From positions 87,912 through 151,911 of the forward strand of contig JADJLR010000008.1 in assembly GCA_016710015.1 (NCBI GenBank): DNA of 64,000 bases. Direction: 5' to 3'. Source of the DNA: Flavobacteriales bacterium (GTDB lineage Bacteria > Bacteroidota > Bacteroidia > Flavobacteriales_F > PHOS-HE28). Position 1 is the stretch's first letter, and each line of letters opens with the position of its first letter. The notes under the pieces are model-generated. The model was not told the DNA's origin, made no database searches, and saw only the letters and a program-made list of their open reading frames with translations. Shown here one piece after another: positions 38,290-60,655 of the stretch. Both the position numbers and the translations under genes were made by a program.

Positions 38290-38415
38290 ATGCGCCCCCT
38301 CCGCTTCTCCCTCAACGTCACTCTGGATGGCTGTTACGATCACACCGTCGGGATCGCCGACGAGGACCTGCACCGTAATGCAATGGAGTACATCGCCGGT
38401 TGCGATGCAGTATGA
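38290..38415 (+). pseudogene. remnant of a dihydrofolate reductase family (RibD C-terminal domain) gene: N-terminal 41 codons then stop
   Basis: MRPLRFSLNVTLDGCYDHTVGIADEDLHRNAMEYIAGCDAV* matches the conserved N-terminus of RibD_C/DHFR-family proteins (compare full-length paralogue 45387..46040). Below the 60-aa cut-off, so absent from the ORF track. Coordinates +/-2. Confidence 0.5.
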
Positions 38416-38463
38416 GTTGAAGCGGTAGCCAGCCCACACATAGGCCCAGTGTCGTAGCGGCCT

Positions 38464-38919: not shown

Positions 38920-38929
38920 GGTAAGTGAT

Positions 38930-39637: not shown

Positions 39638-40068
39638 CAGAGCGCTGCGCGTAGCTTTTTCGTCAACTCGGCCTTGAACTTCGCGGCATCGTTCGCCGAC
39701 ATGAAGGCCCATTCCGTCAGGTCGATCTTCTCGGCCTTGCCGTTCTTGTACACATGCAGGAATAGCGCGGATCCGTATGCCCCGAACTCTTCGGCCAGCT
39801 TGGCATTGGCCTCGTCGTCCACGTTCACGGTGCGGAAGGTGATGGTGCCGGCCTTCTTCTCTGATGCGAACGTGCTGTTGAGCACCTCTTCGGTGAGCGA
39901 CTGTATCGTTAGGCAGGTCTTGCAACGGTGCTCGTTGTGGAAGTCGATCACATCGATGCGGGCCGAGCTGGCCGTGGTCGAAGCTTTGACCGGCTGTTGT
40001 GCATTGCTCGTGCAGGCCGAAACGAACAGCGCCAACGAGAGGAAGGAAAGATGGATGAGGTGTTTCAT
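39637..40068 (-). CDS. thioredoxin-fold lipoprotein
   Basis: 143 aa. Signal peptide with LFVSAC lipobox. HNEHRCKTC (CxxC) thioredoxin-like motif. Confidence 0.55.
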   Translation of the reverse strand: MKHLIHLSFLSLALFVSACTSNAQQPVKASTTASSARIDVIDFHNEHRCKTCLTIQSLTEEVLNSTFASEKKAGTITFRTVNVDDEANAKLAEEFGAYGSALFLHVYKNGKAEKIDLTEWAFMSANDAAKFKAELTKKLRAAL

Positions 40069-40075
40069 GGCGTTT

Positions 40076-40735: not shown

Positions 40736-41706
40736 AGGATGATGTTGAACAGGTAGCCGCTGAGGATGATGAAGAAGGTGACCGTGCCGAAGAAGATCGC
40801 GATGAGCTTCCAGGTCATCACCTTCTTGAGCAGCGTGGCTTCGGGCAGCGAGAGTCCGATCACGGCCATCATGAAGGCGATCGCGGTGCCCAGCGGAACG
40901 CCTTTCTGCACCAGCACCTGGACCACGGGCAGCACACCGGCGGCATTGGCGTACATCGGTATGCCGAGGATCACGGCCAAGGGCACGGCCAATGGATTCT
41001 CCTTGCTGATGTGTTCCTCGAAGAAGCCCGTGGGAATGAAGCCGTGCATGAGCGCACCGATGCCGATGCCGATGAGCACATAGAGCAGTACGCTCTTCAC
41101 GATGCCCAAGGCCTCTTGGGTGATCCCGGGCAGACGTTGCGCGAAGGTGCGTTTCTCCTCCTCGTAGCTGCCTTCCACTTCGGCCTGCTGGATCACACCC
41201 TGCACCCAGGGCGTGAGCAGGTGTTCCAGCTTGAGCTTCCCGAGCACATATCCACCGATCGTGCCCAAAAGGATCCCGCTTGTCGCATAGATCAAGGTGG
41301 TCTTCAAACCGAACATACCGATGAAAATGGCGATGGCCACTTCGTTCACCAAGGGCGAGGTGATGAGGAAGGCGAAGGTGACGCCCATGGGGATGCCACC
41401 TTTTACGAAGCCGATGAACAGCGGCACCGAACTGCACGAGCAGAACGGTGTGATCGCCCCGAAGGCGGAGGCCAGCAGGTATTCGCCACCGAAGAGTTTG
41501 TTGCGCGAGAGGAAGTTGCGGATGCGGTCGATCGGGAAGTAGGCGTTCACGATCCCCATGATGAAGGTGATCACGAACAGCAGGATCAGGATCTTGATGG
41601 AGTCGTAGAAGAAGAAGTGCAGCGCCTGCCCCCAGTGGGTGGTCGCATCGAGGCCGATGGTGTCGTACACCAGCCATGCAATGAGGGTATCGAGCCAGTC
41701 GAACAT
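40732..41706 (-). CDS. arsP: organoarsenical efflux permease ArsP (DUF318 permease)
   Basis: 324 aa, 8 TM helices, TPFCSCSSVP motif diagnostic of ArsP/YraQ-type permeases. Confidence 0.75.
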   Translation of the reverse strand: MFDWLDTLIAWLVYDTIGLDATTHWGQALHFFFYDSIKILILLFVITFIMGIVNAYFPIDRIRNFLSRNKLFGGEYLLASAFGAITPFCSCSSVPLFIGFVKGGIPMGVTFAFLITSPLVNEVAIAIFIGMFGLKTTLIYATSGILLGTIGGYVLGKLKLEHLLTPWVQGVIQQAEVEGSYEEEKRTFAQRLPGITQEALGIVKSVLLYVLIGIGIGALMHGFIPTGFFEEHISKENPLAVPLAVILGIPMYANAAGVLPVVQVLVQKGVPLGTAIAFMMAVIGLSLPEATLLKKVMTWKLIAIFFGTVTFFIILSGYLFNIIL

Positions 41707-41708
41707 GC

Positions 41709-41942
41709 TCAGCGCAGCATCGCCGCGATCTCCTCCACGCTGGGCACTCGGCCTTTGATCATCACCACTTCATCCAGCACCAAGGCGGGCGTGGTGAGGA
41801 TGTTGTACTTCATGATCTCCATGATGTCCTCCACCTTGATCACCTGCGCATCCGCACCGGTTGTGCGCACGGCTTCTTCCGCTGCGGCGATGGTGGACTT
41901 GCATTTGGCACAGCCGGTGCCGAGTACTTTGATGGTCTTCAT
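41709..41942 (-). CDS. redox-active disulfide protein 2 (small thioredoxin family)
   Basis: 77 aa MKTIKVLGTGCAKCK...; the CxxC small Trx usually paired with DUF318 permeases. Confidence 0.7.
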   Translation of the reverse strand: MKTIKVLGTGCAKCKSTIAAAEEAVRTTGADAQVIKVEDIMEIMKYNILTTPALVLDEVVMIKGRVPSVEEIAAMLR

Positions 41943-41958
41943 GGGTTCGTTCTTCTGA

Positions 41959-42264
41959 TCATTTCAACAGGCCCTTGAACAGGCTCTGCGCGTGTTTCCA
42001 GTTCTCCTTGTTGATGCAGTACTTGATCTTCGGCGGCAGGATCTCCCCTTGGATGAGACCTGCTTCCTTCAAGGCTTTCAGGTGCTGGCTGATGGTGCTT
42101 TGCGCCATGGGAATCTCCTCGGTGAGGTCGCCGTTGTAACAACAGGCGCGGTCGGCGAGCAGCTTCAGGATACGGATCCTCACCGGATGTCCTAGCGCTT
42201 TCGCATAGCGGGCCATTTCCTCCTCTTGCGTGGTGTAGTCGATTTCGATAGCGGTGCGCAGCAT
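41959..42264 (-). CDS. arsR: ArsR family transcriptional regulator
   Basis: YAKALGHPVRIRILKLLADRACCYNGDLTEEIPMAQSTISQHLKAL: ArsR HTH with a Cys pair in the metal-sensing position. Confidence 0.8.
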   Translation of the reverse strand: MLRTAIEIDYTTQEEEMARYAKALGHPVRIRILKLLADRACCYNGDLTEEIPMAQSTISQHLKALKEAGLIQGEILPPKIKYCINKENWKHAQSLFKGLLK

Positions 42265-42354
42265 CAGTTCTTCTTTGGTTCCTGTGCGGATACCGGGATC
42301 CCGAGAGCCAAGGAATTCATGATCACGAGGACAGGAGTATGGGAACGCATAGCT

Positions 42355-42412
42355 GGTTGTTCATCGCAAATGAACGATGTATGTGCTGCCTGAGAAGTGA
42401 CGATCGTCACCT
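42355..42412. promoter_or_regulatory. two palindromes (GTTCATcgcaaATGAAC and perfect 14-mer GTGACGATCGTCAC) between acr3 and the second arsR: candidate operators
   Basis: Both lie in the 155-bp gap upstream of arsR (41959..42264) and downstream of the acr3 stop. Coordinates +/-2. Confidence 0.4.
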
Positions 42413-42419
42413 CGCGGGA

Positions 42420-43451
42420 TCAGTATTGCCTGCGCTTCGCGATCCGGACCAGATGCAACATGATCGGCACTTCGATCAACACGCCCACCACGGTGGCCAG
42501 CGCTGCTCCACTGTTCAGACCGAACAAGGCGATCGCGACCGCAACGGATAGTTCGAAGAAATTGCTGGCTCCGATCATGCTGGCCGGGGCGCAGGTACGG
42601 TAGGGGAGCTTCAGCAGACGACCTCCTTTCCAGGTGAGGAAGAAGATGAAATAGGTTTGCAACGCAAGGGGTATGGCGATGAGCAGGATGTGGAACGGGT
42701 TCGCGAGGATCTTCTGTCCTTGAAATGCGAACAGCAGCACCAGCGTCAGCAACAGCGCGGCGATCGAGACTGGTTTCAACGTTGGAAGGAACACGGTCTT
42801 GAACCAATCCTCACCACGCGTCCGGATCAGCCAGCGGTTGGTGAGGTAGCCGGCCACCAGCGGGATCACGACGAAGACGACCACCGAGGTGATCAGCACC
42901 TCCATGGGTATGGAAATGCCGGTGATACCCAGCAGCAGTTGCACAATGGGGACGAAGAGCAGCAGCAGAATGAGGTCGTTCACGCTCACCTGCACCAAGG
43001 TGTAGTTGGGGTCGCCGCCGCTGAGGTAGCTCCATACGAACACCATCGCGGTACACGGTGCAGCGCCGAGCAGGATGGCACCGGCGATATACTCCTGGGC
43101 GAGTTCGGGTTCGAGCCACGCGCTGTACAGATTGTCGAAGAAGAGCAACGCGAAGAAGGCCATGGTGAAGGGCTTGATGAGCCAGTTCACCACCACGGTC
43201 AGGCTCAAGCCTTTCACATCGCGCCCGATGCGGGTAATGGACCCGAAGTCGATCTGCACCATCATGGGATAGATCATCAGCCAAATGAGCACGGCCACGG
43301 GCAGGTTCACATGGTTGTACTCCAGGTCGGCGACCACCTGCATGCCGCTGCCTGCCAATTCGCCCAGCGCAATGCCGACGCCGATGCACAGCAGCACCCA
43401 AGCCGTGAGGTACTTCTCGAAGAAGCCGATGGAGGTGGTGGTATCGCTCAT
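42420..43451 (-). CDS. acr3: arsenite efflux transporter ACR3
   Basis: 343 aa, 10 TM helices, conserved LIKPFTMAFFALLF ... GAAPCTAMVFVWS motif block of the ACR3/ArsB(BART) family. Confidence 0.85.
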   Translation of the reverse strand: MSDTTTSIGFFEKYLTAWVLLCIGVGIALGELAGSGMQVVADLEYNHVNLPVAVLIWLMIYPMMVQIDFGSITRIGRDVKGLSLTVVVNWLIKPFTMAFFALLFFDNLYSAWLEPELAQEYIAGAILLGAAPCTAMVFVWSYLSGGDPNYTLVQVSVNDLILLLLFVPIVQLLLGITGISIPMEVLITSVVVFVVIPLVAGYLTNRWLIRTRGEDWFKTVFLPTLKPVSIAALLLTLVLLFAFQGQKILANPFHILLIAIPLALQTYFIFFLTWKGGRLLKLPYRTCAPASMIGASNFFELSVAVAIALFGLNSGAALATVVGVLIEVPIMLHLVRIAKRRQY

Positions 43452-43547
43452 TTAAGCGCTGGAGTTTGAGCTGTAGGGAACGTGGATCCAGTGAATGTGA
43501 TCAGGTCCTTGATGGTGACATCCGTGTCATCTGCGGCCGCAATTGTT

Positions 43548-44183
43548 CTACCCAATGACCAAGTCCATCAAGTGGTTCATCTCCCGAGCGATATCAAGGC
43601 TGCGTTCCTGATAGGTCCTGGCTTCATCCGCGGTGCCATCGCTCTCCTTCGGGTCCTCGTAGGGAAGGCTGAAACGCATGACCGCACCCGGTACGAAAGG
43701 GCAGTTCTCGTCGGCGTCGCTGCAGACCATGACGGCCGCAAAGTCCACGGCAGTGTCATCGCGATCGCTGATGGATTTGGAGAACAGAAGAACTGGAGGT
43801 TCCTCATCATCGTAGTTCACGAGGTACTGCGTTCGTACCGCATTGCCATGGATGTCCAGATCACCCGCACCATCCACGCGGAAGCCCTGCGCTCTCAAGG
43901 CATCGATCACCGGGCTGGCCACTGCTGTGCCTTCTGTACCGGCCGACGAGGTATGGATGTCCTTCAGCCCGGTCCGGTGCGCCGCCACCTTGGCCCACAC
44001 TTGTGCGAACTGGCTGCGTCGGCTGTTGTTCGTGCAGATGAACGCCAAGTGTGCCGTGTTGCCCTTTGCGCACTGAGCCTTGATCCACGCAGCGATGGCC
44101 CCAAGCCGTTCTGCGCGTTCGGTCGAGATGGTCTTGCCTGAATTGGCGATCCCATCCACGGTAAGTTGCAGTTCGGGATACAT
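43548..44183 (-). CDS. arsC: arsenate reductase ArsC (LMW-PTP type) with ~50-aa N-terminal extension
   Basis: LAFICTNNSRRSQFAQ is a CX5R P-loop; CSDADENC distal cysteines. Confidence 0.7.
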   Translation of the reverse strand: MYPELQLTVDGIANSGKTISTERAERLGAIAAWIKAQCAKGNTAHLAFICTNNSRRSQFAQVWAKVAAHRTGLKDIHTSSAGTEGTAVASPVIDALRAQGFRVDGAGDLDIHGNAVRTQYLVNYDDEEPPVLLFSKSISDRDDTAVDFAAVMVCSDADENCPFVPGAVMRFSLPYEDPKESDGTADEARTYQERSLDIAREMNHLMDLVIG

Positions 44184-44515
44184 CAGCAGCAGCTCCTGTC
44201 AACAGGCGCGTATTTGTTGAATAGTGCATTGAAAACGGCCTGCGCCTTGGCCCAGTTCTTCGGTTCGATGCAGTAGCACACGCTGGTGCCTTCCACCGTT
44301 CCGGTGATCAATCCGGCATCCTTCAATTCGCGCAAGTGTTGGCTGATCGTGGCCTGCGCCAAGCCCAGTTCATCCACCAAGCTGCCGCACACGCAGGTGT
44401 TGCGCTGCAGTATGTGCTGAAGTATCGCGATGCGCGCCGGATGGCCCAGTACCTTGGCCCATTGGGCAGTGCGGTTCTGGTCGCGGGTGAAGAGTTCGGC
44501 TTTGGTGATCCCCAT
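44183..44515 (-). CDS. arsR: ArsR family transcriptional regulator (arsenic-responsive, C-terminal Cys cluster)
   Basis: WAKVLGHPARIAILQHILQRNTCVCGSLVDELGLAQATISQHLREL and C-terminal ...VDRSCC. Confidence 0.8.
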   Translation of the reverse strand: MGITKAELFTRDQNRTAQWAKVLGHPARIAILQHILQRNTCVCGSLVDELGLAQATISQHLRELKDAGLITGTVEGTSVCYCIEPKNWAKAQAVFNALFNKYAPVDRSCC

Positions 44516-44705
44516 CTTGATCGTTTGATCGCAATATTACGATGTATATCCTTTCGTCAAAAAGAATGTGATCATAGAAAGAGACGGACAGGGCACGACT
44601 TGAGGACCTTATACCCGATCCGCACAGCTATCAAGGTGTACGCATGTGAAGAATCGCCGAGTGCTGCGCTGGTGCTTCTCGGTCAAATGGCCAACTGCGC
44701 GGCGA

Positions 44706-45068
44706 TCACTTCCGCAAGATCTTCTCCATGGCCTTGCCCTTGGCCAGTTCGTCCACCAGCTTGTCCAGATAGCGGATCTGCTGCATGAGCGGGTCTTCGA
44801 TGTCCTCCACGCGGTAGCCGCAGATGACGCCGGTGATGAGGGTCACGTTCGGGTTCATTTTCGGCGCCTTCGCGAAGAAGGCTTCGAAGTCAACCTTCAT
44901 TTCGAGCACTTTCTGCAGGCCTCTCTCCGTGTAGCCCGTAAGCCAGTGGATCACTGTGTGCAGTTCCTCCTTGGTGCGGCCCTTCTTCTCCACCTTGTTG
45001 ACGTAGTGCGGGTACACGCTGGCGAACGTCATTCGGTAGACCCGTTCGTAATTCGCGCTTGGCTTCAT
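44706..45068 (-). CDS. DUF2200 domain-containing protein
   Basis: 120 aa; conserved [30 protein letters not shown] pattern of the DUF2200 family. Confidence 0.55.
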
Positions 45069-45386: not shown

Positions 45387-46040
45387 TCACATGCTCTTTC
45401 GCGTGATGCGATAGAATGTGGCCCGCTCGCCCATAACGCTTTTCTCGCATTTGTACCCGAGCTTGTTCAGGTCGATCCCGGCCAGCAGCGGCTCGCCCGC
45501 TCCGAGCAGCACGGGCGATACCGCCAAGTGCATCTCATCGATCAACTTGGCTTGCAGGTATTGGCGCACTGTTGCGGCGCCGCCGCCCACGCGCACATCA
45601 CGCGCACCGGCTGCTTCGCGTGCGCGTTCCAGTGCCGCTTCGATCCCCTCGGTCACGAAGTGGAAGACGGTGCCGCCCTCCATTTCCAAGGAAGGCCGCG
45701 GATGGTGCGTGAGAACGAAAACGGGCACATGGTACACCGGGTTGCTGCCCCACCAACCTTTCCAATTCTCATCGGGCCAAGGACCGCGCACCGGCCCGAA
45801 CATGTTGCGCCCCATGATCCACGCGCCGATGTTCTCCATCCCTTGGGCGGCTATGTCATTGTCCGTTCCGAGGTCGCCCTCATCCTTGCCGAAGTGTGTT
45901 CGTTGGAAGTACCGTGTGCGGAGCATCCAGGTGTGCAAATTCTCTGCACCGACGCCGAGCGGGGATTCCAGTGATTGGTTCAGACCGGCACCGAATCCGT
46001 CGAGTGAGATGGTGTAGCTGTGAACGATGAGGCGGGGCAT
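45387..46040 (-). CDS. dihydrofolate reductase family protein (RibD C-terminal domain)
   Basis: MPRLIVHSYTISLDGFGAG...GRNMFGPVRGPW...RVGGGAATVRQYL: RibD_C fold. Start taken as M8 of the track ORF (46040) because duplicated 5' fragments elsewhere begin at this ATG. Confidence 0.75.
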   Translation of the reverse strand: MPRLIVHSYTISLDGFGAGLNQSLESPLGVGAENLHTWMLRTRYFQRTHFGKDEGDLGTDNDIAAQGMENIGAWIMGRNMFGPVRGPWPDENWKGWWGSNPVYHVPVFVLTHHPRPSLEMEGGTVFHFVTEGIEAALERAREAAGARDVRVGGGAATVRQYLQAKLIDEMHLAVSPVLLGAGEPLLAGIDLNKLGYKCEKSVMGERATFYRITRKSM

Positions 46041-46085
46041 GGTGGGGTTGTTTCGCTTCAAAGGTGAGCACTGCCTGCGAACCTC

Positions 46086-46160
46086 ACTTGATCAAAATTT
46101 GAAAGGCGGGTCGGGCTTTTATAGTTCTGAGCCGAAAAATTGAAAAGTGGTCGCCGCTTT
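46086..46160. repeat. hairpin-pair motif A (AAATTGAAAAG..stem..CTTTT x2) between the DHFR-family gene and the PIN gene
   Basis: Sequence aaaatttgaaaggcgggtcgggcttttatagttctgagccgaaaaattgaaaagtggtcgccgcttttcaattctcg; related copy at ~47420-47478. Coordinates +/-2. Confidence 0.5.
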
Positions 46161-46222
46161 TCAATTCTCGATCAGATCCTGATCATGGATGAAGCCAGCA
46201 ATTTGACCCATGCGAACATCCA

Positions 46223-46786
46223 TTAGAGCAGCGCATGCAGATAATCAGCAGTGTTCTTCAGGCCGACCTTTCGGAACTGGTCCAGCACTTGGTAAGCATC
46301 GAGTTCAGGGGAACGTCGGTTCGCCACAAGCTCCTTGAAAGCCTCTAACGCGCGCGCTTGGTTCAGGTCGATGATGTCCGTCAGGAAGTCGTCGGCGCTC
46401 TTTGCTTCCAACCCATACTTCGCCAGTTCCTTCTCAGGGAAGTCTCGGAGGTTGTTCGTGACGATCAGGTTCGCATTGGCCTTGATGGCAGCTGCCAGCA
46501 CATGGCGGTCGTCCTTGTCGGGCAATTCCAAGCCTTCGATCAGGCCGTCGTAATTCTCCACGAGCGCATCCGAGAACGCGTCGCTCATTCGTTGGATCCG
46601 TTTGAGGATCTCCGGTTCTTCAATGCCCTTATCGCGCATCACCTTGGCCCACTCGTCGCAAATGCCAATGCTCCACTTCACGGTGAAGAGGTCGTAATGC
46701 GCGAACCACAACAACAGATCCCGGATGTTCACCGGGAAGATGACGTTGGTGTCCAGAACACACGTGAAGCGGACGCTATGAATCAT
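46223..46786 (-). CDS. PIN domain toxin (VapC-like)
   Basis: VLDTNVIF ... acidic residues in PIN-like spacing; 11-bp overlap with upstream HTH gene. Confidence 0.65.
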   Translation of the reverse strand: MIHSVRFTCVLDTNVIFPVNIRDLLLWFAHYDLFTVKWSIGICDEWAKVMRDKGIEEPEILKRIQRMSDAFSDALVENYDGLIEGLELPDKDDRHVLAAAIKANANLIVTNNLRDFPEKELAKYGLEAKSADDFLTDIIDLNQARALEAFKELVANRRSPELDAYQVLDQFRKVGLKNTADYLHALL

Positions 46787-47309
46787 AGAGACCGGCCTCT
46801 TCGTCGTCCTTCATCATGTCCTTCAGGTTCCGCCTCTGCGCCTCCTTCATCGCCATGCGATATTTCATCACATGCTCGTACTTGATACGTCGATGCTTGC
46901 CGATCAAGGTGAAGGGGATCTTGCCCTGCTCCAGCAGCTTCACCACATGGGGACGGGAACAACCGAGCATCTCAGCGGCTGCCTGCGTGGTCATCTCCGC
47001 CGCGATGGGCATGATCTGTACGGGACGCCCTTCACCCAGATCCTTCAGGATCCGGGATAGAAGATGGAGCGCCATGGTTGGCACGACGATCTTTTGGGAG
47101 GTCTCTTCGATCTCGATCTCGGTCGTATCCTTTTTGGAGAGGCTCTTCAACGACTCTTCAAGTGCCGTGAACGACCTACGTGCGGCCTCTTGCTCCGACC
47201 GTGTCGGCTTGGCGGTATGGGTCTCAACAGCTGGCATGGCATCTGGGGTTGGTGATGCAAAGTTAAACGCAATAAACGAAACGGTGTTGCGCAGGGGCGT
47301 TGCCATCAC
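46776..47309 (-). CDS. helix-turn-helix (excisionase/MerR-type) DNA-binding antitoxin
   Basis: ...TQAAAEMLGCSRPHVVKLLEQGKIPFTLIGKHRRI: HTH_17-like motif. Likely start MPAVETHTAK at 47237. Confidence 0.6.
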   Translation of the reverse strand: MMATPLRNTVSFIAFNFASPTPDAMPAVETHTAKPTRSEQEAARRSFTALEESLKSLSKKDTTEIEIEETSQKIVVPTMALHLLSRILKDLGEGRPVQIMPIAAEMTTQAAAEMLGCSRPHVVKLLEQGKIPFTLIGKHRRIKYEHVMKYRMAMKEAQRRNLKDMMKDDEEAGLYDS

Positions 47310-47419
47310 CTCTTGGGCTTGTTTGATGGGAAGGGCCGGACAAGTCCAGACAACGAGCTAACCTCCTGATATACCGAGCGTTAGTTTCTTGATGGTTGCT
47401 TGATGGGCCATCCTATCCA

Positions 47420-47478
47420 GAAATTGAAAAGCGGGAACAGCTTTTACAGTTCTGGGGCGAAAATTTGAAAAGTCACCA
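47420..47478. repeat. hairpin-pair motif A' (copy of 46086-46160)
   Basis: Sequence agaaattgaaaagcgggaacagcttttacagttctggggcgaaaatttgaaaagtcacc: same architecture and ~75% identity to motif A. Confidence 0.5.
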
Positions 47479-47559
47479 TTGAGCTAGCCTGCATGCTGCG
47501 CGAGATCACGGGTAATAAGTGGGGGCGGGTGTATCGATTCGATGAGTACTTCAAGGTGT

Positions 47560-47640
47560 TCGAGTAGCACGGCGGGATGACGCGAGGGAGATGATTGCTG
47601 TGGACGATGAGGCGGGGCATGGGCGAAGAATCGCAAGCTC
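47560..47640 (-). repeat. duplicated 5' fragment of the DHFR-family gene (first 8 codons MPRLIVHS) with diverged upstream sequence
   Basis: Reads ...gtggacgatgaggcggggcatgg, against gtgaacgatgaggcggggcatgg at the native start (~46020-46041). Confidence 0.55.
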
Positions 47641-47651
47641 TCCGAGAACCA

Positions 47652-48596
47652 CTACCGAGCCACTGGCGGTTGCACGGCAATGTTCTTGATCCACATCTTG
47701 CTCTGCTCGCTGATGATTGCCTTTACGGCTGGGCTTTTCTCGAAGACGATGGTCATAAGGTGGTAGGCAGTCAACACAGCCTCCTGCAGATCCTGAGAAC
47801 TCTCCAAATCTTCGATCAGCACACCTTGTGCCCGTGCTTCCTCGCGATCAATGCGCCTGCCATGGCTCTTCTTGTCCGATCCACGACTGAAATAGTTGGC
47901 GACCGAGTTGCCTTTAACCTCCGCATCCGATTGCCCGTTGAACATGTACTTCATCAACCATCCAGCGACGACCTTTTCGCTATAGTCGATCGCATTCTGC
48001 GCCTCCTGAAGAAGCGCGGGGCCCAACGAGGGTAGGATCGGCGCCCAGAGATGTGCCATGTTCCGATCAGCGGAGATCTCCTTCTTGGCCCGCTCGAACT
48101 GGTCAAGAATGGCAACAGCGGAAACTGTCCGCCCGCCCACTGGCATCTGCGGATCGATCGGACCAAGCTGACTTTGCCTGCCCATGATGATGCGGTCCGC
48201 ACATAGGCTGATCATTGTTCCAGCCGACATCGCATACGTTGGAACGATCACCTCGATATCGTTCGGGAACTTGGACCTTAGGTATGCCACGATGGTCTCC
48301 GTGGAATTCGTGATCCCACCAGGCGTGTGCATGATAAGCGTCAGACCCTTGCTCCAATCCATCCCATGCATCGACGACATGAAACCGTTGATCTCCTCCT
48401 GCGTGATCTGCAGGAACATCGGGTGGGCTTGTGGCTTCTGAAGGAACGCGGATGCATAGAACAAAACGTTCCGGTCACCCCTCAGCTTCCCAACTTGTTG
48501 GAGAGCGCCGATCAGATTGCCGAACAGCCACTTGGTCTTTTCGGCATCCGTCTTCTGTGCTTCTAGAGCGTTGACAAGCTCATTCCACGACGGCAT
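47652..48596 (-). CDS. ClpP/SppA-fold serine protease (SDH-family / S49-like)
   Basis: 314 aa. LIMHTPGGITNSTETIVAYL ... VPTYAMSAGTMISLCADRIIMG: nucleophile-elbow and oxyanion pattern of ClpP-fold (S49/SDH) proteases. Confidence 0.6.
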   Translation of the reverse strand: MPSWNELVNALEAQKTDAEKTKWLFGNLIGALQQVGKLRGDRNVLFYASAFLQKPQAHPMFLQITQEEINGFMSSMHGMDWSKGLTLIMHTPGGITNSTETIVAYLRSKFPNDIEVIVPTYAMSAGTMISLCADRIIMGRQSQLGPIDPQMPVGGRTVSAVAILDQFERAKKEISADRNMAHLWAPILPSLGPALLQEAQNAIDYSEKVVAGWLMKYMFNGQSDAEVKGNSVANYFSRGSDKKSHGRRIDREEARAQGVLIEDLESSQDLQEAVLTAYHLMTIVFEKSPAVKAIISEQSKMWIKNIAVQPPVAR

Positions 48597-48598
48597 GC

Positions 48599-48829
48599 TC
48601 AGTGAATTGCCAAGCTCAGGGGGTGGCTCATGTCCCGTTGGATCGCTTGAAGCTGGGCCTTCTCGAATTCACTGTCATCCGGTTCCGCAAGCTTCACCAA
48701 CTCCACGTACTCCTGATACTCCTTCTGAGCAGCGGCTAACGCCTCGAAGAACTCATTGGATGAGTTGCCTTCGGCAGGCTGCTTTGGAATCTGTTGGTTG
48801 GGGAACATGGCGCTAAGATGGTACATCAA
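48599..48829 (-). CDS. small hypothetical protein co-transcribed upstream of the ClpP-fold protease
   Basis: 76 aa; acidic, helical (EFFEALAAAQKEYQEYVELVKLAEPDDSEFEKAQLQAIQRD); 2-bp gap to protease gene. Confidence 0.4.
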   Translation of the reverse strand: MMYHLSAMFPNQQIPKQPAEGNSSNEFFEALAAAQKEYQEYVELVKLAEPDDSEFEKAQLQAIQRDMSHPLSLAIH

Positions 48830-48884
48830 AGTTAATACCCTTGTTAAGGCGGCATCAAGACCAGTTAGGCGGATCGGTCCGGAC

Positions 48885-48962
48885 CGGCACCGAAGCCGTC
48901 GAGAGAGAGCGAGTAGCTGTGGACGATGAGGAGCATGGTGAATTGTTGCGCTTGAAGAATGC
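48885..48962 (-). repeat. second duplicated 5' fragment of the DHFR-family gene (MLLIVHSYSLSLDGFGAGPDRSA*)
   Basis: Reads gagtagctgtggacgatgaggagcatggtg, similar to 46008-46045. Encodes 24 residues collinear with the DHFR-family N-terminus. Coordinates +/-2. Confidence 0.5.
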
Positions 48963-48992
48963 TGGCTTCAGTTGGAGTACATACACCTCGCA

Positions 48993-49637
48993 TCAGGTGT
49001 GCAAGACTTCCCATCCATTCGTGTTGAAGGTAATGTCATCTACCTCCAAAGGTGATATGGCATCATTCACGGCGCGCCGAAAAGCAGTAAAAGCCCGCGG
49101 ATTGTCTTCGATCCAATACCAGCTCCCCCATGGCGGTCTTTTGGCTGGGTCTGCCGATACGATCAGCCGACGCGACTTCCGGCCCGCGAAATCGATTGGC
49201 CGAGTGATTCGTGACAGTTCATCGCCTGCTATTGCGTTCCAGTCTCGTTTCAGATTGCTCATGGCCTCAACCAAGGCCTCCTTCGTTGGTGTTGGTTTCG
49301 GTGGATGAATTTGCTCACCCCATACTGGCCACCAACCTTTCCCATCGGCCGAAACACCAGCTATGCGCTCTGCAACATCCTCGTCCGGCGGTGCTGGCAG
49401 TTCAGCAATGAGCAGATCATGGAACCCATACTGTCGAGCCCATGTGAGAGTTTCGCGCCAACGGCCACGAATGGCATCTGCTGTCGAAAATGCAGCCCCA
49501 GCCAAAATCAATGGAACCGGCGGTTTGGGTATACCCGCATCACTTCGAGATTCCCAGGCCTTGACCAGGACTCCGTGAACTCTAGCCCAATCACTTGGGA
49601 CAGGGACAAGAACTGTATTGGAATCTTCTTTAGACAT
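48993..49637 (-). CDS. hypothetical protein
   Basis: 214-aa ORF, Pro/Trp-rich, no recognisable domain. Lies between the second DHFR fragment and the ALDH gene. Confidence 0.35.
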   Translation of the reverse strand: MSKEDSNTVLVPVPSDWARVHGVLVKAWESRSDAGIPKPPVPLILAGAAFSTADAIRGRWRETLTWARQYGFHDLLIAELPAPPDEDVAERIAGVSADGKGWWPVWGEQIHPPKPTPTKEALVEAMSNLKRDWNAIAGDELSRITRPIDFAGRKSRRLIVSADPAKRPPWGSWYWIEDNPRAFTAFRRAVNDAISPLEVDDITFNTNGWEVLHT

Positions 49638-49859
49638 AGCTGTGAGAGATCAGCCGAATGCAAAGGACGATAGCATCGCGTGAGGGGGCGCAGCGGCAGC
49701 CCTGCGCAGGCGTGGTCTTGCGGACGCGTGCAACAAGGAGGCTGCGACGAAGGAGCCCCCGGAGCGCCGCGACCGCTGGCCGCGACAAGTCAGGCTATAG
49801 CGGAGCACCCGACCCGCGCGGGGTTCGTGCGTGAGCGAGGGGCACGCCAACATCATCAC

Positions 49860-51240
49860 TCAATTCAAATTCAAGTAAGCCCCCAACCCATGCAACCCGC
49901 CTTCCCGTCCGTAGCCGCTTTCCTTGTAGCCGCCGAAGGGTGAGGTGGGGTCGAACTTGTTGAAGGTGTTGGCCCAGATGACGCCCGCGCGCAATTTGCT
50001 GGTGAGGTTGAAGATCTTGGAGCCTTTGTCCGTCCACACGCCGGCGCTGAGGCCGTAGGGCGTGTTGTTGGCTTTCTGGATCACCTCGTCCACGGTGCGG
50101 AAGGTCTGCACGGCGAGCACGGGGCCGAAGATCTCCTCCTGCGCGATGCGCGCGCTTTGCGCCACGTTGAGGAAGAGCGTGGGGCGGCACCAGAAGCCTT
50201 TGCTGGGCAGCTCGCAGGCGGGCTGGTACATCTCCGCACCATCGGCTTGACCGATCTTGAGGTACTTGTTGATGGTGCCGAGCTGTTCCTTGCTGTTGAT
50301 GGCGCCGATGTCGGTGTTCTTGTCGAGCGGATCGCCCACGACGAGCGAGCGCATGCGGTGCTTGAGCTTGCGGATCACTTCGTCGTACACGCCTTCCTCC
50401 ACGAAGAGGCGGCTGCCGGCGCAGCACACGTGGCCCTGGTTGAAGTAGATGCCGTTGATGATGCCTTCGACGGCCTGGTCGATGGTGGCGTCGGCGAAGA
50501 TGATGTTGGCCGCTTTGCCGCCGAGCTCGAGCGTGGCCTTCTTGCCGGTGCCGGCGATGCTCTTCTGGATGAGCTTGCCCACGCCGGTGCTGCCGGTGAA
50601 GGCGATCTTGTCGATGCCCGGATGGTTGACGAGCGCCGCGCCCGTGGCACCCGCACCGGTGATGATGTTGACGACGCCATCGGGCAGTTCGGCTTCCTGG
50701 ATGAGCTCGGCGAGCAGCAAGGAGGTGAGCGGTGTGGTCTCGGCGGGTTTCAGCACCACGGTGTTGCCGCAGGCCAGCGCGGGCGCGATCTTCCACGCGG
50801 CCATGAGCAGCGGGAAGTTCCACGGGATGATCTGCCCGGCGACGCCCAGCGCGCTGGCTGTTTTTCCGGGGAAAGCGTAGCCGAGCTTGTCGGCCCAACC
50901 GGCGTAGTAGAAGAAGTGCGCGGCGGCGAGCGGCACGTCCACGTCGCGACTTTCACGGATGGCCTTGCCGCCGTCCATGCTTTCGACCACGGCGAACTGG
51001 CGGGCTTTCTCCTGCAGCAGGCGCGCGATGCGGTAGATGTACTTGGCGCGTTCGGCGGCGGGCATCTTGCTCCACACGTTGTCGTAGGCCTTGCGCGCGG
51101 CTTTCACGGCGGCGTCCACATCGGCCGCGTTGGCCTCGGCGATGCGCGCGATCTTCTGCTCGTTGGCGGGGTTGATGGTGTCGAAGTAGTTGCCGCTCTT
51201 GGGCTTCACCCATTTGCCGCCGATGAAGAGGTCGTACTGC
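49860..51240 (-). CDS. aldehyde dehydrogenase family protein (5' end obscured by low-complexity artefact)
   Basis: Collinear ALDH from EQYDLFIGGKWV through catalytic ELGGKAANIIF and FNQGHVCCAGSRLFV to the C-terminus ~49860. The N-terminal ~15 codons run into the poly-G block. Confidence 0.8.
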
Positions 51241-51415
51241 TCCCCCGGGGGGGGGGGGCTTTTGGGGGGGGGGGGGGGGGGGGGCCCGGGGGGGGGTTTT
51301 TGGGCGGCCCCCGCCCCCCAGGAGAAAGGGGCCCCCCCCCCCCTCTTTTTTTTTGGGCCCCCGGGGGGGTCCCCCCGCGGGGGGGGGGAGGGGGGGATTC
51401 GAAATTGTTTTCCGG

Positions 51416-52036
51416 GGTGGCCGGCACTCAATTCAGTAAGCGCGGGCAGGTGCTCCATGGCGAACTCCAGCGAATGGGCCATTTCGATGAGCGTGGTCGC
51501 GAAGGTGCGCGGGTGTTTGCATTTCCGATCACAGGCCTTCAGTTCCGCCGAGAGGTGCGCACACAGGTCCTTGTACGGCTGAAAGAGTTTCAGTTTGTTA
51601 TCCTCGTCCACGTTCCGGTGCAGGAAGGATTTGGAGCCTTCCACGATCACCAGCGCACGCAGGTCCACCGGGTCCAGTTGGGCCGCCATGGCATCCTTGG
51701 ACCAGAGCCCGCACAATAAACGAATGTCCCCTGTAGGCGTTCCCAAGCATCCGGGAGCAAACGTCCTTCCTGCTGACAATGCGTATCCAACCACATCCAA
51801 TACAACTGGAAGTAGTACTGAAGCAAGCGCTGTTTGTTCGGAAAGTACTTGTAGATCGTAGCTTCCGTGCATTCTGCGCGTTCAGCGAGCTTCTTGAAGG
51901 TGAAGACCTCCAGACCAAGCTCGTTCATGAGAGCAAGTCCTTCCGAGAGGATCCGTTCCCCCACGACGGAAGTGCCCGGATCACGCAAGTGAAGGGTCGG
52001 GTCAGGGATCAATTGGTAATGGGCCATGGGTGCCAA
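51416..52036 (-). CDS. TetR/AcrR family transcriptional regulator (frameshifted near 51728-51731; 3' end obscured by artefact)
   Basis: HTH FTFKKLAERAECTEATIYKYFPNKQRL. The C-terminal ligand domain continues in the adjacent frame (DIRLLCGLWSKDAMAAQLDPVDLRALVIVEG...) after a GGGG undercall. Divergent from the ABC exporter operon. Confidence 0.65.
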
Positions 52037-52074
52037 ATATAGTATTACTTTAATTTGCGATTGCTTTACTACCT

Positions 52075-53751
52075 TTGCGCCCGATGACGAACCCCATCAC
52101 CCCTTGGCAGCGCCTTGGACGTCTGTTGCGCGTGGACAAGCGCGAGATCGGCCACATTTACCTGTATGCGCTTGTGGGCGGTGCCATCAGCCTTAGCCTA
52201 CCGCTTGGCGTACAAGCCATCATCAACCTGATCAGCGGCGGACAGATCGCCACGAGCTGGGGTGTGCTCATCGCTTTCGTCACCGTCGGAGTTGGTTTCA
52301 GCGGAGCCCTGCAGGTGATGCAGTTGGCCTTGGCCGAGAATATCCAACAGCGCCTGTTCGCGCGCAGTGCGCTGGAGTTCGCATACCGGATCCCGAGGGT
52401 AACGTATGACGCTGCCAGTGGCCGATACCTGCCTGAACTGGTGAACCGCTTCTTCGACACCATGACCGTGCAGAAGGGCTTGGCGAAGCTGCTCCTGGAT
52501 ATTCCATTAGCGATCCTTCAGATCGCGCTTTCCTTGATCCTTTTGGCGGTCTATCACCCTTTCTTCATCGCCTTCGGCCTATTCCTGGTCATTCTTCTCT
52601 TGCTCATATTCCGCTACACCGGCCAACGTGGATTGGCGACCAGCTTGGAGGAGAGTTCCTATAAGTACAAGGTGGCTTTCTGGCTGGAAGAACTCGGTCG
52701 GAACCAAGGCACTTTCAAAATGATCGGCCGGACCGATATGCCGCTGGAACGCACGGATGAACTGGTAGGGAAGTATGTCGACGCACGGAAAGCACATTTC
52801 AAGATACTCCTTGGCCAATACAGCGCCATGGTGGTCTTCAAGGTGGTGCTGACCCTTCTTCTGCTCGCTATCGGAGGAGCGTTGGTGATGAATGAACAGA
52901 TGAACCTCGGTCAATTCGTCGCAGCGGAGATCGTGATACTCTTGCTGATCAACGCCGTGGAAAAGATCATCCTGAACATCGCGAGCGTGTATGATGTGGT
53001 CACCGCATTGGAAAAGATCGGTCAGGTCACGGACATCGAATTGGAGCGCACCGGTGGGCTGCAGATCCTGTCCACGTCCGTGGACCAAGGACTTGAAGTA
53101 CGCGTGAAAGACCTCCGATACCGATCGGGTTGGAGTGAACGCAATGTGCTCGATGGCCTGGACCTTCATTTGGCTCCTGGGGAAAAGGTCTGCATCGGTG
53201 GAACGACCGGTGCCGGGAGATCGACCTTGCTGCGCATATTGGGCGGAGGCATTCCGGCTGCCGCAGGCTCCGTCACCTTGGACGGTCACTCGATGACCAG
53301 CTTGGACCTGGAGCATGTGCGCTCCATGATCGGCGATAGCTTGAGCGACGAGAACGTATTCTCCGGTTCGGTGATGGACAACATCACTGTTGGGCGGAAG
53401 TGGATCACGGAGGACCAATTGATCGAGGCCTGCAAAGTGACGGGCCTGTTCGACCAGCTCGCCATGTTGCCCCATGGCCTGCTCACACAATTGGACCCAC
53501 AAGGGGCGCGATTGCCGAGGAGCCTGGTGAAGCGCATCGTACTCGCACGCGGTATCATCGGAAAGCCCCGTCTGTTGCTTTTGGAAGACAGCCTGAAGGA
53601 CTGGGAGCCCGAACAGCGTGAGCAGTTGTTGGGCTGGATCACGGCTGCTGAACGCCCATGGACACTGTTGGTGGTCAGCAACGATAAGTGGGTACAGGAA
53701 CGCTGCTCCCGGGTTTTGGAATTGAAGAACGGAAGGCTCGAATCACATTGA
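52075..53751 (+). CDS. ABC transporter ATP-binding/permease protein (HlyB-like exporter, no peptidase domain)
   Basis: 6-TM domain then NBD with GGTTGAGRSTLLRIL (Walker A), LDGHSMTSL, LLLLED (Walker B). Confidence 0.8.
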   Translation: MRPMTNPITPWQRLGRLLRVDKREIGHIYLYALVGGAISLSLPLGVQAIINLISGGQIATSWGVLIAFVTVGVGFSGALQVMQLALAENIQQRLFARSALEFAYRIPRVTYDAASGRYLPELVNRFFDTMTVQKGLAKLLLDIPLAILQIALSLILLAVYHPFFIAFGLFLVILLLLIFRYTGQRGLATSLEESSYKYKVAFWLEELGRNQGTFKMIGRTDMPLERTDELVGKYVDARKAHFKILLGQYSAMVVFKVVLTLLLLAIGGALVMNEQMNLGQFVAAEIVILLLINAVEKIILNIASVYDVVTALEKIGQVTDIELERTGGLQILSTSVDQGLEVRVKDLRYRSGWSERNVLDGLDLHLAPGEKVCIGGTTGAGRSTLLRILGGGIPAAAGSVTLDGHSMTSLDLEHVRSMIGDSLSDENVFSGSVMDNITVGRKWITEDQLIEACKVTGLFDQLAMLPHGLLTQLDPQGARLPRSLVKRIVLARGIIGKPRLLLLEDSLKDWEPEQREQLLGWITAAERPWTLLVVSNDKWVQERCSRVLELKNGRLESH

Positions 53752-53754
53752 TCC

Positions 53755-55113
53755 ATGTTGGACCTAAGCCCACAGAACCCCGTACCCGTTCTCGATCGAA
53801 GTTCGTTCGCGTCGTTCCGAACGATCGGCATCGCCAAGGCCAATGAGCTCTTTGCGAAATGGCTGATCGCGATCTGTATCCTTGTGCTGCTCGGAATGTT
53901 CCTGCCCTGGACACAGAACATCCGGGCGCGCGGCACCCTCACGAGCCTCTCCCCTGATCAGCGCCCGCAAACGCTACACTCCATCATTCCTGGTCGCTTG
54001 GAAGAATGGTTCGTGCAGGAAGGCCAATTGGTAGAGAAGGGCGATACGATCCTGCGCTTGAGCGAAGTGAAGGCGGAATACTTCGATCCGTTGTTGTTGG
54101 ATCGGACACAGCAGCAGATCACCGCCAAGGAAATGACGGCGCGCAGCTATGACGAGAAGGTGCGTTCGCTGGATGCCCAGATCGATGCGCTGAGTGGTGG
54201 ACTCCGGATCAAACTGGAACAGGCTCAGAACAAGATCCTACAGGCCGGACTGAAGATCCAAAGTGACAGTATCCGTGTGGTGGCGGCACGCACAGAGATC
54301 AAAGTGGCCGACGACCAATACGCGCGGGGCGAGCAACAATTCAAGGAAGGACTTATCAGCAAGGTGGAATTGGAGAAACGCCAAGTGGCGCAGCAACGAG
54401 CAAATGCAACATTGATCGATGCGAAGAACAAGTTGCTGGAGGCCCGGAACGAATTGCTCAATGCTCAACTGGAAGTGAATGGTATCCGGAACGACTATCG
54501 CGACAAATTGAGCAAGGCCGAAAGTGAGAAGTTCGCCAGCATGAGCCAGTTCTTCACCACCGAAGGAGAAGTGAGCAAGATGCAAGTGGACCTGGCGAAT
54601 TTTACCGTGCGTGCCGGCAACTACTATGTGACCGCACCGCAGCAAGGCTACATCACCAAAGCGGTAGTGACAGGTATCGGCGAAACAGTGAAAGAAGGTG
54701 ATGATCTCGTGACCATAATGCCTGCACGTTTCGACCTCGCGGTTGAGCTCTACGTACGCCCTATGGACATGCCGTTGGTCAACGCAGGTCAAAAGGTGCG
54801 CTTCATCTTCGACGGGTGGCCAAGCATCGTCTTCAGCGGGTGGCCGAACACCAGCTACGGCACCTTCGGTGGAACGGTCGTGGCGATAGACAATTTCATC
54901 AGCCCGAACGGCAAGTACCGCATCCTTGTAGGTCCCGATCCGGATGATGACCAGTGGCCGAAAGCCTTGCGTGTAGGTGGCGGTGCCGTGGGATTCGCGC
55001 TGATGAGCGACGTGCCGATCTGGTATGAACTCTGGCGGCAGGTGAATGGATTCCCTCCGGACCTCTATACCGACGTGAAGGATGTGAGCACCAAAGAGGA
55101 CAAGGAAAAATGA
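53755..55113 (+). CDS. HlyD family secretion protein (membrane fusion protein)
   Basis: N-terminal TM anchor, long coiled-coil, C-terminal beta-barrel/lipoyl-like hairpin. Classic type-I-secretion MFP layout. Confidence 0.75.
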   Translation: MLDLSPQNPVPVLDRSSFASFRTIGIAKANELFAKWLIAICILVLLGMFLPWTQNIRARGTLTSLSPDQRPQTLHSIIPGRLEEWFVQEGQLVEKGDTILRLSEVKAEYFDPLLLDRTQQQITAKEMTARSYDEKVRSLDAQIDALSGGLRIKLEQAQNKILQAGLKIQSDSIRVVAARTEIKVADDQYARGEQQFKEGLISKVELEKRQVAQQRANATLIDAKNKLLEARNELLNAQLEVNGIRNDYRDKLSKAESEKFASMSQFFTTEGEVSKMQVDLANFTVRAGNYYVTAPQQGYITKAVVTGIGETVKEGDDLVTIMPARFDLAVELYVRPMDMPLVNAGQKVRFIFDGWPSIVFSGWPNTSYGTFGGTVVAIDNFISPNGKYRILVGPDPDDDQWPKALRVGGGAVGFALMSDVPIWYELWRQVNGFPPDLYTDVKDVSTKEDKEK

Positions 55114-60575: not shown

Positions 60576-60655
60576 TACGCCAATAAAAGCCTTTCAGTTC
60601 GAACGATGGCAAAGAAACGTTCTGCATAGATCACCTCGTGTTCCAGCTGCGAACA

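Follow-up and report, generated by a model that had tools for sequence, protein, structure and literature searches.

The segment from 45.4 to 49.7 kb of a 64,000-nucleotide stretch of a Flavobacteriales genome (contig JADJLR010000008.1; the whole stretch is referred to as the window) is the variable core of a lineage-specific accessory-gene hotspot located between an aldehyde dehydrogenase (ALDH) gene and a DUF2200 gene. An intact gene of the RibD_C ('DHFR-family') type stands within this core, and copies of its start, a unit of ∼75 nt that we call R, are repeated between the accessory cassettes. The same spot collects dozens of different cassettes in related genomes of the host lineage, which consists of uncultured activated-sludge Flavobacteriales. 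We favor, with a probability of about 0.6, the explanation that cassettes entered at the RibD_C start by insertion with long target duplication and were subsequently exchanged by homologous recombination through R.

Unit R comprises a promoter-like box, a 5' untranslated region (UTR) with A at -3 and the first 13–30 codons of the RibD_C gene. Alignment of the resident copy (R3) with orthologues and fragments defined a conserved block, CCCAACTTTGA..CAAC..CCCACC-ATG, and the profile match at R3 spans -56 to +298 relative to the start codon. Two further copies, R2 and R1, are located upstream of R3 (Table 1). The core of R2 is a 26-nt copy (47597-47622) identical to 46017-46042 at 25 of 26 positions, with the identity beginning sharply at -2 (CC ATG); R2 is followed by the spacer CGTCATCCCGCCGTG and then by the stop codon of a Fic gene. 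R1 is older and more diverged: 60 nt (48872-48931) are 85% identical to the window's own gene, as against 90% to the allele of a related locus (L011), a BLAST alignment covers 89 nt at 80%, the promoter box has decayed to TTCTTCAA and one codon has been lost. The motif CTCATCGTYCACAGC is present three times in the window, only at the three gene starts, where 0.41 occurrences are expected and one of 100 shuffled sequences reaches three. A genome-wide mobile promoter is unsupported as an identity for R, all three window copies being at the hotspot.

An R profile built from intact gene starts returned 99 matches in 51 hotspot loci, with up to four copies per contig, all in direct orientation. After removal of redundant copies and of those cut by a contig end, 63 remained, of which three are full length and 60 truncated. 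The right ends of the truncated copies range from +29 to +239, and 27 of the 60 end at +35 to +43, with a mode at +39, directly after ...ATCTCGCTCG, which is the end of codon 13; further right ends are located at +52-60, +61-75, and +76-105 and beyond. Copies ending at +39 are joined to ∼20 different sequences. Left ends vary from -2 to about -56, and the box CCCAACTTTGA and the UTR ending CCCACC are kept in most copies. Many of the +39 copies are trailed by 1–11 nt of the spacer on the Fic side (C, CG, CGT, CGTCAT, CGTCATCCCG), which suggests that the 17-nt spacer separating R from the Fic stop codon took up later insertions. Such insertions can account for part of the +39 clustering, but not for the founder junctions or for copies that lack a tail. 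In metagenomes, 110 stretches contain the 20-mer that follows the start codon, many of them with two or three matches. All R matches with recognizable flanks are in the ALDH...DUF2200 neighborhood, many contigs being too short to place.

Two kinds of additional sequence were observed at R copies. One and the same perfect palindrome of 20 nt, CCTGCCTGCCGGCAGGCAGG, interrupts R copies at +15, +36, and +62 (L109 199; L114 8914 and 10686; L203 7799 and 9571; L169 2642; L196 459; L199 43; L175 2190) and is absent from the window. This suggests a tiny mobile palindrome or a repair footprint, and that R is break-prone; the alternative that CCTGCCTGCCGGCAGGCAGG represents the terminal inverted repeats of a cassette-bracketing transposon was rejected, as neither half is found without the other. 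Tandem repeats of ∼42-nt period, made up of DLRDKSCDLRGQVN units in one frame, directly follow the RibD_C gene or an R copy at L013 2624-3070 and, as the reverse complement, at about L116 3530-3700.

Related loci, labeled L001–L222, served as comparators. Fifteen independent same-species sources at ∼99% identity were found, mostly metagenome-assembled genomes from activated sludge, and 14 of these share the gene order of the window. An assembly artefact was rejected because 14 independent assemblies, one of them a 4.07-Mb contig, show this order. Searches for exact matches to the RibD_C and PIN proteins retrieved nothing beyond this species and this context and are uninformative on mobility. 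The exception among the fifteen, L003, is 99.8% identical to the window at 60191-64000 and 99.4% identical from 47622 downward, with the intervening 12.5 kb replaced by 4.2 kb carrying another open reading frame (ORF), a 95%-identical ALDH allele and a protein secreted by the type IX secretion system (T9SS). The right breakpoint, 47622, is the first base of the 26-nt gene-start copy (-2 of R2), and the L003 gene-start copy retains a UTR resembling that of the real gene. Five of the first 120 nt past the breakpoint are mismatched, compared with ∼0.5% further on, which suggests a homologous crossover close to the copy.

In related species the order ALDH...RibD_C...DUF2200...second RibD_C paralogue...glyoxalase is conserved (L011, L013), with RibD_C proteins 86-87% identical to that of the window, and RibD_C orthologues in L011-L013 are 83-87% identical in amino acid sequence and have the same neighborhood. 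The genes between ALDH and RibD_C/DUF2200 are entirely different: L011 carries 310-aa and 271-aa ORFs and a ParE-like pair, and L013 carries other ORFs. In many contigs, homology between lineages stops at or just past the ALDH stop codon, and the DUF2200 gene follows the variable region in L011, L013, L101-L105, L116, L139, L218, L219, and L222. An earlier reading of the window from its sequence alone had proposed a recurrent insertion spot at the RibD_C start, and this was borne out by the variation of the cargo between gene-start copies across relatives.

The cargo between R copies is diverse. Toxin–antitoxin genes (HTH-PIN, where HTH denotes helix-turn-helix, ParE, RelE, HicAB-like, DUF433/PIN-like) are accompanied by two restriction–modification systems, Fic, the SDH-family protease pair, TIR-domain proteins, KilA-N/ORF6N genes, T9SS substrates and many small lipoprotein-like ORFs, most of the latter unannotated. 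Pfam searches of 147 cargo ORFs also identified NgoMIV and ApaLI restriction enzymes, TIR_2, DUF4411, Imm33-like, and Por_Secre_tail domains. Individual loci differ: DUF8370/8371, a Dcm+ApaLI restriction–modification system and HTH-PIN are found in L101, reverse transcriptase, IS3, T9SS protein, and HTH-PIN genes in L104, and KilA-N and ORF6N genes in L222. Fic and several other cargo genes are in reverse orientation, and the protease and HTH-PIN cassettes have their own TAACTTTG promoter boxes. The RVT_1 reverse transcriptase and IS3-family transposase of L104 (855-2970) lie inside the hotspot; the IS3 entered as an insertion of its own, and its transposase is the only one seen in any locus.

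The flanks of the protease cassette provide the most readable record of an insertion. This cassette, together with the first ∼22 nt of the R copy downstream of it, is 90-99% identical in the window, L158, L181, and L218-L222, and the DNA on either side differs; the cassette and R are common to the window, L158, and L181, with different DNA after R, and the junction of the cassette with R2 recurs in L158, L181, and L218-L221. In L219 the cassette is located between direct repeats of 55-57 nt, each made up of the R stretch between about -7 and +39 together with the initial 10 nt (CGTCATCCCG) of an older R|Fic junction. The left-flank tail of R and CGTCATCCCG in L181 indicates that the protease cassette there is probably between such repeats as well. 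A single-copy target, with promoter and R (to +39) joined to Fic, is present in L117, L129, and L156. A second case is L101, which contains three direct copies of a 220-nt unit in which the initial 38 nt of RibD_C are joined in frame to a gene for a 197-aa secreted protein; the Dcm+ApaLI system follows one copy and A'-HTH-PIN follows the next, and two of the three copies are 90% identical to each other.

Insertion with long target duplication was reportedly first described by Nobusato and colleagues in 2000. In published cases, small units such as restriction–modification systems stand between direct repeats of 30 to ∼420 bp that match a single-copy target in relatives, and the insert carries no transposase or integrase, the mechanism being unexplained (Furuta, Abe & Kobayashi 2010; PMC2853133). 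Direct repeats of more than 30 bp combined with a single-copy target in a relative were found in L219 and L101; the resemblance is partial in the window, where R2 and R3 share 26 nt and R1 shares 60-89 nt at 80-85% identity. The inserts are likewise below the 20-kb limit, the cassettes measuring 0.5-2.7 kb, and are devoid of transposase and integrase genes. The phenomenon is thus the closest known match, the protease cassette of L219 and the Dcm+ApaLI system of L101 being the clearest parallels. It also differs from the hotspot in three respects: the published cases are isolated at scattered sites, whereas here one ∼75-nt target has been hit repeatedly to give arrays of up to four repeats; the hotspot has a preferred end point at codon 13 and reuses the gene start in frame; and most of its cargo is not restriction–modification systems.

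The HTH-PIN cassette next to the intact gene has flanks of another kind. The N- and C-terminal remnants of a Fic gene survive beside it, the former aligning with the Fic start in L218 and the latter matching the C-terminus of a 446-aa Fic_N+Fic+HTH_13 ORF in L115 (Pfam Fic_N E 1e-20, Fic E 3e-18, plus HTH_13). L218 is 99.6% identical to the window over 49560-47491, from within the 214-aa ORF through R1, the protease cassette and R2 as far as the nucleotides just past R2. Beyond this point L218 has an intact Fic gene of 381 aa, encoded on the opposite strand, then element A, a promoter and a disrupted RibD_C gene; HTH-PIN is absent. L218, L219, and L221 are 97-99.6% identical to the window across the protease cassette and all three lack HTH-PIN, the order in these near-identical strains being protease cassette–R–intact Fic (reverse)–element A–RibD_C. 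Since both Fic ends survive beside HTH-PIN and L218 retains the intact gene, the A'-HTH-PIN segment (47473-46213) appears to have replaced the Fic interior, and the cassette would not have integrated at the RibD_C start in this window. The RibD_C gene of L218 is interrupted at about +223 by an insert of ∼170 nt (8531-8702), as it also is in L219, L175, and L155.

The PIN and HTH genes overlap by 11 nt, and as adjacent, overlapping small genes they are predicted to form a type II toxin–antitoxin pair. Homologues with 88-90% amino acid identity are present in the same hotspot in L101-L105, with DUF2200 directly after them and no intact RibD_C gene, and in L101-L104 the cassette (82% nucleotide identity) has an identical left end at A' and stands beside DUF2200, not RibD_C. 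Only the core (window 47291-46213) is present in L105, L106, and L173, the L106 copy being at an unrelated locus. These arrangements indicate that movement of the PIN-HTH cassette does not depend on RibD_C.

A 56-nt element occurs twice at this cassette (A at 46093-46148 and A' at 47418-47473, 80% identical). Element A contains the inverted repeat AATTGAAAAG-N9-CTTTTCAATT, a TATAAAAGC box and a second box, CTTTCAAAT; the CTTTTCAAWTTTT box is present four times in the window, all in A and A', against 0.11 expected, and none of 100 shuffled sequences reaches four. Element A adjoins intact Fic starts in L218, L115, and L156 without HTH-PIN, and A' accompanies HTH-PIN in L101-L104, L157, and L205. 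Element A is therefore the Fic upstream element and A' belongs to the HTH-PIN cassette. The sequence-only reading had viewed A and A' as hairpins that mark the boundaries of one event and the PIN-HTH pair as a unit bounded by gene-start copies. The repeated element is real, but its sequence is conserved and not its structure, as RNAalifold found no consensus pairs among 12 A-type elements, which share sequence blocks; A and A' match no Rfam family, and a simple terminator scan does not flag them. The proposed boundaries did not hold up: the place of the pair was originally occupied by reverse Fic and element A (L218, L219, L221), and a role of A and A' as att sites bounding the pair was rejected because A exists without the pair and A' moves with it. 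Upstream of R2, L003 has a weakly A-like stretch that a profile search did not confirm and that was treated as chance. The conserved inverted repeat, TTGAAAAG-N9-CTTTTCAA, looks like an operator, at which the HTH-bearing Fic protein may act.

The order of events that we infer from these states begins with a reverse-oriented Fic gene, together with its upstream element A, which would have entered at codon 13 of RibD_C. The small-ORF/SDH-protease cassette would then have entered just upstream of the R copy beside Fic, after which the A'-HTH-PIN cassette would have replaced the Fic interior. Finally, homologous recombination with diverged relatives would have exchanged two parts, the left flank with R1 and the segment that runs from the Fic remnant to DUF2200 and contains the RibD_C allele that is now intact. 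Later homologous exchange is indicated by the different left flank in the window and L218, by the mosaic structure of L220, in which a window-like right part (98%) is joined to an L219-like left flank, and by the right block, the window from 47491 to about 44950 being only ∼80% identical to L218, including RibD_C versus the disrupted L218 copy. Under the proposed mechanism each insertion would leave a direct copy of the gene-start stretch on its upstream side, so that cassettes come to be separated by R repeats; the ∼55-nt direct repeats that span a pre-existing junction where flanks are cleanly readable, with no mobility gene, are those expected of long target duplication. The several R copies would in turn provide short portable homologies through which cassettes may be excised, re-inserted and swapped between strains, and ordinary illegitimate events would add further layers. 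Strain mismatches cluster at 38500-40500 and 49500-51000, the rest being ∼99.9% identical, and the ABC-transporter region of L010 (window 51419-54826) is only 86% identical; the mismatch clusters and the divergence of L010 point to frequent recombinational import around the hotspot.

Several observations weigh against insertion with target duplication followed by exchange through R. The preference for +39 is left unexplained, as a duplication or illegitimate process without specificity does not predict it, and it hints at a sequence- or distance-specific break. The window flanks do not form a clean duplication pair, R1 extending to +67/78 at 80-85% identity and R2 and R3 sharing 26 nt, and imperfectly matching stretches of 26-55 nt would be expected to recombine only rarely. 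The order of events rests on a handful of comparator contigs. No event was caught in progress, the 14 same-species sources showing one order with small local deletions in some, and the locus looks fixed at present. In addition, the search for a recombinase covered flanks of up to 10 kb, the top 25 Pfam families and a motif regular expression.

Classical site-specific integration, as the sequence-only reading had proposed, would involve an attP that mimics the RibD_C start, a single core site and replacement of the gene's 5' end, with the present cassettes as integrase-less remnants or as units mobilized in trans. Islands specific for dusA provide the model: they integrate into a gene's 5' end, supply a replacement 5' end, carry an integrase and have a fixed crossover. 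The hotspot resembles them in having the displaced gene 5' end at the far side of the insert and a reconstituted gene on the downstream side of the cassettes. R copies are without exception direct repeats with a single orientation, the breakpoints of L003 versus the window and of the protease cassette fall in the most conserved stretch (ATG to +22), the 55-nt repeats of L219 also resemble an attL/attR pair and the +39 boundary recurs. Unlike dusA-type islands, however, the hotspot has cassettes of only 0.5-2.7 kb, and the ends of its repeats vary on both sides (left from -2 to -56, right from +29 to +239). Cassettes meet R anywhere, even inside genes, as in the upstream-gene remnant of L181 and the in-frame fusions, and R lacks dyad symmetry and hairpin potential.

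No integrase was found in the ∼50 hotspot loci within the DNA sampled or in the 64-kb window. Recombinases are absent from the annotated neighbors at 29.9-64 kb and from the top 25 of 102 Pfam families matched by the 147 cargo ORFs, and no window ORF of at least 150 aa has a tyrosine or serine recombinase motif. The corresponding regular expression matched only two of 868 ORFs of at least 150 aa, both arginine-rich shadow ORFs. A phage or plasmid attP was sought by comparing the gene-start 20-mer with the 2.9 million viral contigs of IMG/VR, and the one match, on the opposite strand inside a terminase gene, was attributed to chance. The observation that no integrase or tRNA is nearby therefore stands, the 64 kb being free of tRNA genes; integration of the integrase type at a single attachment site is unlikely. 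The observation made from the sequence alone is thus confirmed and its interpretation partly supported.

A slightly less probable alternative is a dedicated, integron-like capture array, in which R would be both attachment site and expression signal, offering incoming cassettes a promoter, a start codon and a leader of 13 codons in functional analogy to attI/Pc, and a recombinase or nuclease encoded elsewhere would cut at codon 13 or close to it. The sharp +39 mode, exactly at the end of codon 13 and with ∼20 partners, is what such an enzyme would produce. Forward cassettes are tightly packed, ending 14-31 nt before the next R start codon, many R leaders are fused in frame to secreted or lipoprotein-like ORFs, the cargo is rich in defense, toxin, and immunity-type genes, and the repeated palindrome insertions in R may mark it as break-prone. 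Integrons, including the integrase-less attC clusters known as CALINs, similarly have small single-function cassettes split by a repeated element, commonly carry toxin–antitoxin cassettes and have an upstream promoter that can serve the cargo. In contrast to integrons, the repeat at the hotspot is a gene start and not an imperfect palindrome, its boundaries vary, no IntI was found (neighbors, cargo Pfam, 868 ORFs), and the cassettes, which in integrons are promoterless and in one orientation, have their own promoters or are reversed in many cases (toxin–antitoxin, Fic, protease). R does not fold: both strands fold no better than shuffled sequences (z +0.3 to +1.7, minimum free energy -1 to -8.5 kcal/mol), and attC-like folding was rejected on these z-scores and the near-absence of structure.

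A parallel within the same phylum is rAID-1 (recombinase-associated acquired interbacterial defense) of gut Bacteroidales, orphan-immunity arrays that are defined by an adjacent XerD-family recombinase and have repetitive intergenic sequences and signs of horizontal gain (Ross et al., 10.1101/471110). The hotspot shares with rAID-1 its repetitive spacers and the evidence of horizontal gain, and perhaps its arrays of small defense/immunity-type genes. A repetitive inter-cassette unit is present, but there is one Imm33-like match only and most lipoprotein-like ORFs are unannotated; the repeat derives from the 5' end of a neighboring gene, and no XerD-family recombinase was found here (cargo Pfam, neighbors, motif scan), nor a XerD/IntI-like gene beside any array. 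Moreover, more than half of the R copies end elsewhere than at +39, and part of the +39..+51 cluster can be accounted for with no enzyme at all, by later insertions for which only the 17 nt from R to the Fic stop codon were available (tails CGT, CGTCAT, CGTCATCCCG). That R is the ∼75-nt working part of an undescribed Flavobacteriales cassette-capture system, broken at the end of codon 13 by an enzyme encoded elsewhere, is doubtful. If it were true, R would be analogous to an integron but based on a gene start where integrons have a hairpin site, and genes joined to it would receive a promoter, a start codon and a leader resembling a signal peptide.

Decay of a tandem family, in which several complete RibD_C paralogues were mostly removed by unrelated deletions and insertions so that the fragments would be uninformative on targeting, is very improbable: a second paralogue truncated by an unrelated event does lie 7 kb away and R1 does resemble a different allele (90% to the L011 type versus 85% to the resident gene), but 60 of the 63 copies keep only the first 29-239 nt and no copy retains a middle or 3' portion while lacking the start, the points of truncation are clustered, older junctions are contained in the flanking repeats, and relatives with an intact gene (L011, L013) have one copy and no tandem family.

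All features named in the sequence-only reading are present, with slight shifts in some coordinates (Table 1).

Table 1. Features of the hotspot and its surroundings in the window
Feature	Coordinates	Strand	Remarks
Truncated N-terminus (41 codons) of second RibD_C paralogue	38290..38415	+	outside array
DUF2200 gene	44706..45068	-	conserved flank on RibD_C side; Pfam E 5e-56
Orphan antitoxin-like gene, 81 aa	45096..45341	-	Pfam Unstab_antitox E 4e-07
Intact RibD_C ('DHFR-family') gene, 217 aa	45387..46040	-	Pfam RibD_C E 4.6e-17
R3, resident R copy at intact gene	46002..46085	-	box CACCTTTG at 46059-46066, 5'UTR ending CACC, codons 1-13
Element A, Fic upstream / Fic-RibD_C intergenic element	46093..46161	.	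repeat search
Fic N-terminal remnant (start codon + ∼12 codons)	46165..46212	+	reads MDEASNLTHANIH, then stop; aligns with L218 Fic start
HTH-PIN toxin–antitoxin cassette	46213..47473	-	Pfam and NCBIfam matches
PIN_3 toxin gene	46223-46786	-	PIN_3 E 1.4e-08; RSP_2648-family PIN E 1.7e-38 (below curated cutoff)
HTH_17/excisionase-type antitoxin gene	46776-47309	-	domain E 1e-14
Promoter box TAACTTTG of HTH-PIN cassette	47258-47265	-	box match
Fic C-terminal remnant (last 32 codons + stop)	47469..47567	+	reads ...LACMLREITGNKWGRVYRFDEYFKVFE, then stop; convergent with R2
R2, truncated gene-start copy	47583..47630	-	profile match -10..+39; ends +39/43
Protease cassette (small ORF + SDH-family ClpP-fold serine protease)	47652..48834	-	Pfam, NCBIfam
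SDH-family ClpP-fold serine protease gene	47652-48596	-	Pfam SDH_protease E 1.7e-19; NCBIfam Clp_like_SDH
Small ORF, 69-76 aa	48599-48808/48829	-	no Pfam match
Promoter box TAACTTTG of protease cassette	48827-48834	-	box match
R1, older, more diverged gene-start copy	48872..48961	-	profile match -26..+67; cut at +67/78
214-aa ORF	48993..49637	-	first cassette after ALDH gene
ALDH gene (49860-51317) + 180 nt downstream	49677..51317	-	other conserved hotspot flank

The remaining cassettes vary among relatives. The 214-aa ORF, which has no Pfam, NCBIfam, or PADLOC match, is partially deleted in L001 and has other genes in its place in L003 and L219. Apart from the HTH domain, PADLOC returned no match for the protease pair, the 214-aa ORF, or the cargo of L011 and L003, and a known defense system was rejected as their identity for want of PADLOC support. 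The Unstab_antitox gene is a cassette in its own right: it is partnered by a ParE toxin in L218, L219, and L139, and in L145, L142, L109, and L115 an R copy cut at +30 to +40 is joined 20-60 nt upstream of it. In L158 (3716-4780) the ALDH gene is downstream of the protease cassette and of an R-fused lipoprotein gene, so that either R-bearing cassettes can be located beyond ALDH as well or the L158 lineage has a different gene order.

The 180 nt after the ALDH stop codon (49677-49859) are GC-rich and conserved with L003 and in part with L104, the DNA beyond differs, and no Rfam match was found; no Rfam family was detected anywhere in 45.3-49.9 kb, even at E values up to 1. At 51247-51400, a G/C-rich homopolymer run at the TetR/ALDH junction fuses both genes into a 670-aa ORF; the L002 and L008 assemblies are normal at this junction, and the window version looks like a corrupted consensus (an assembly or polishing artefact). 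The sole Rfam family in the window is a SAM riboswitch (RF00162; 14797-14914, minus strand, 57 bits), unrelated to the hotspot.

The fragment at 38290-38415 had been regarded as a further remnant of the same process. It is a real RibD_C-family start, 87-88% identical in nucleotide sequence to the starts of intact 180-190-aa genes (L011 12177-12749, L013 3729-4271, L101 8671-9228), but it belongs to a different paralogue at the edge of an arsenic island and reflects a separate process. These three relatives, which have the intact paralogue, have no ars genes between DUF2200 and the second RibD_C paralogue, and the fragment thus marks an unrelated truncation by the ars island. This arsenic/redox island (about 38416-44700) encodes two ArsR proteins, LMWP ArsC, ACR3, an ArsP permease, a thioredoxin-like protein, FmdE, DsbD, and DinB; relatives have Crp-like, SnoaL-like, and other genes in its place, and one of its edges cuts the paralogue at codon 41.

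R may also function as a promoter and translation-start module for the cargo downstream of it. The consensus of the -7 promoter element in Bacteroidetes is TAnnTTTG, and the R box (CAACTTTG or CACCTTTG) presumably corresponds to this element, which it resembles. The start codon is in the context CACC-ATG, with A at -3, and R RNA is nearly unstructured (-1.4 kcal/mol over 55 nt). Translation initiation in Flavobacterium johnsoniae is favored by A at -3 and by a weakly structured start-codon region (PMC6847099). At least 10 unrelated ORFs, most of them lipoprotein-like, begin in frame with MPRLIVHGFTISL, and in some of the fusions the R codons provide the charged and hydrophobic start of a lipoprotein signal peptide. 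One of the R-fused proteins has its own N-terminus elsewhere (L126), showing that fusion was secondary. Forward cassettes usually terminate 14-31 nt short of the start codon of the next R. The recurrence of in-frame fusions suggests a role of R copies as ready-made expression modules for downstream genes.

The movement of toxin–antitoxin, restriction–modification and defense modules without a mobility gene has been an open problem since long target duplication was described. The hotspot offers one short target with dozens of independent events in a heavily sampled, abundant wastewater lineage, in which empty, filled and nested states can be compared, and the codon-13 preference together with the repeated palindrome insertions points to a specific break process. 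Promoters and translation starts of Bacteroidota differ from those of most donors, and the repeated reuse of a gene-start copy by unrelated genes suggests a route to foreign-gene expression in this phylum.

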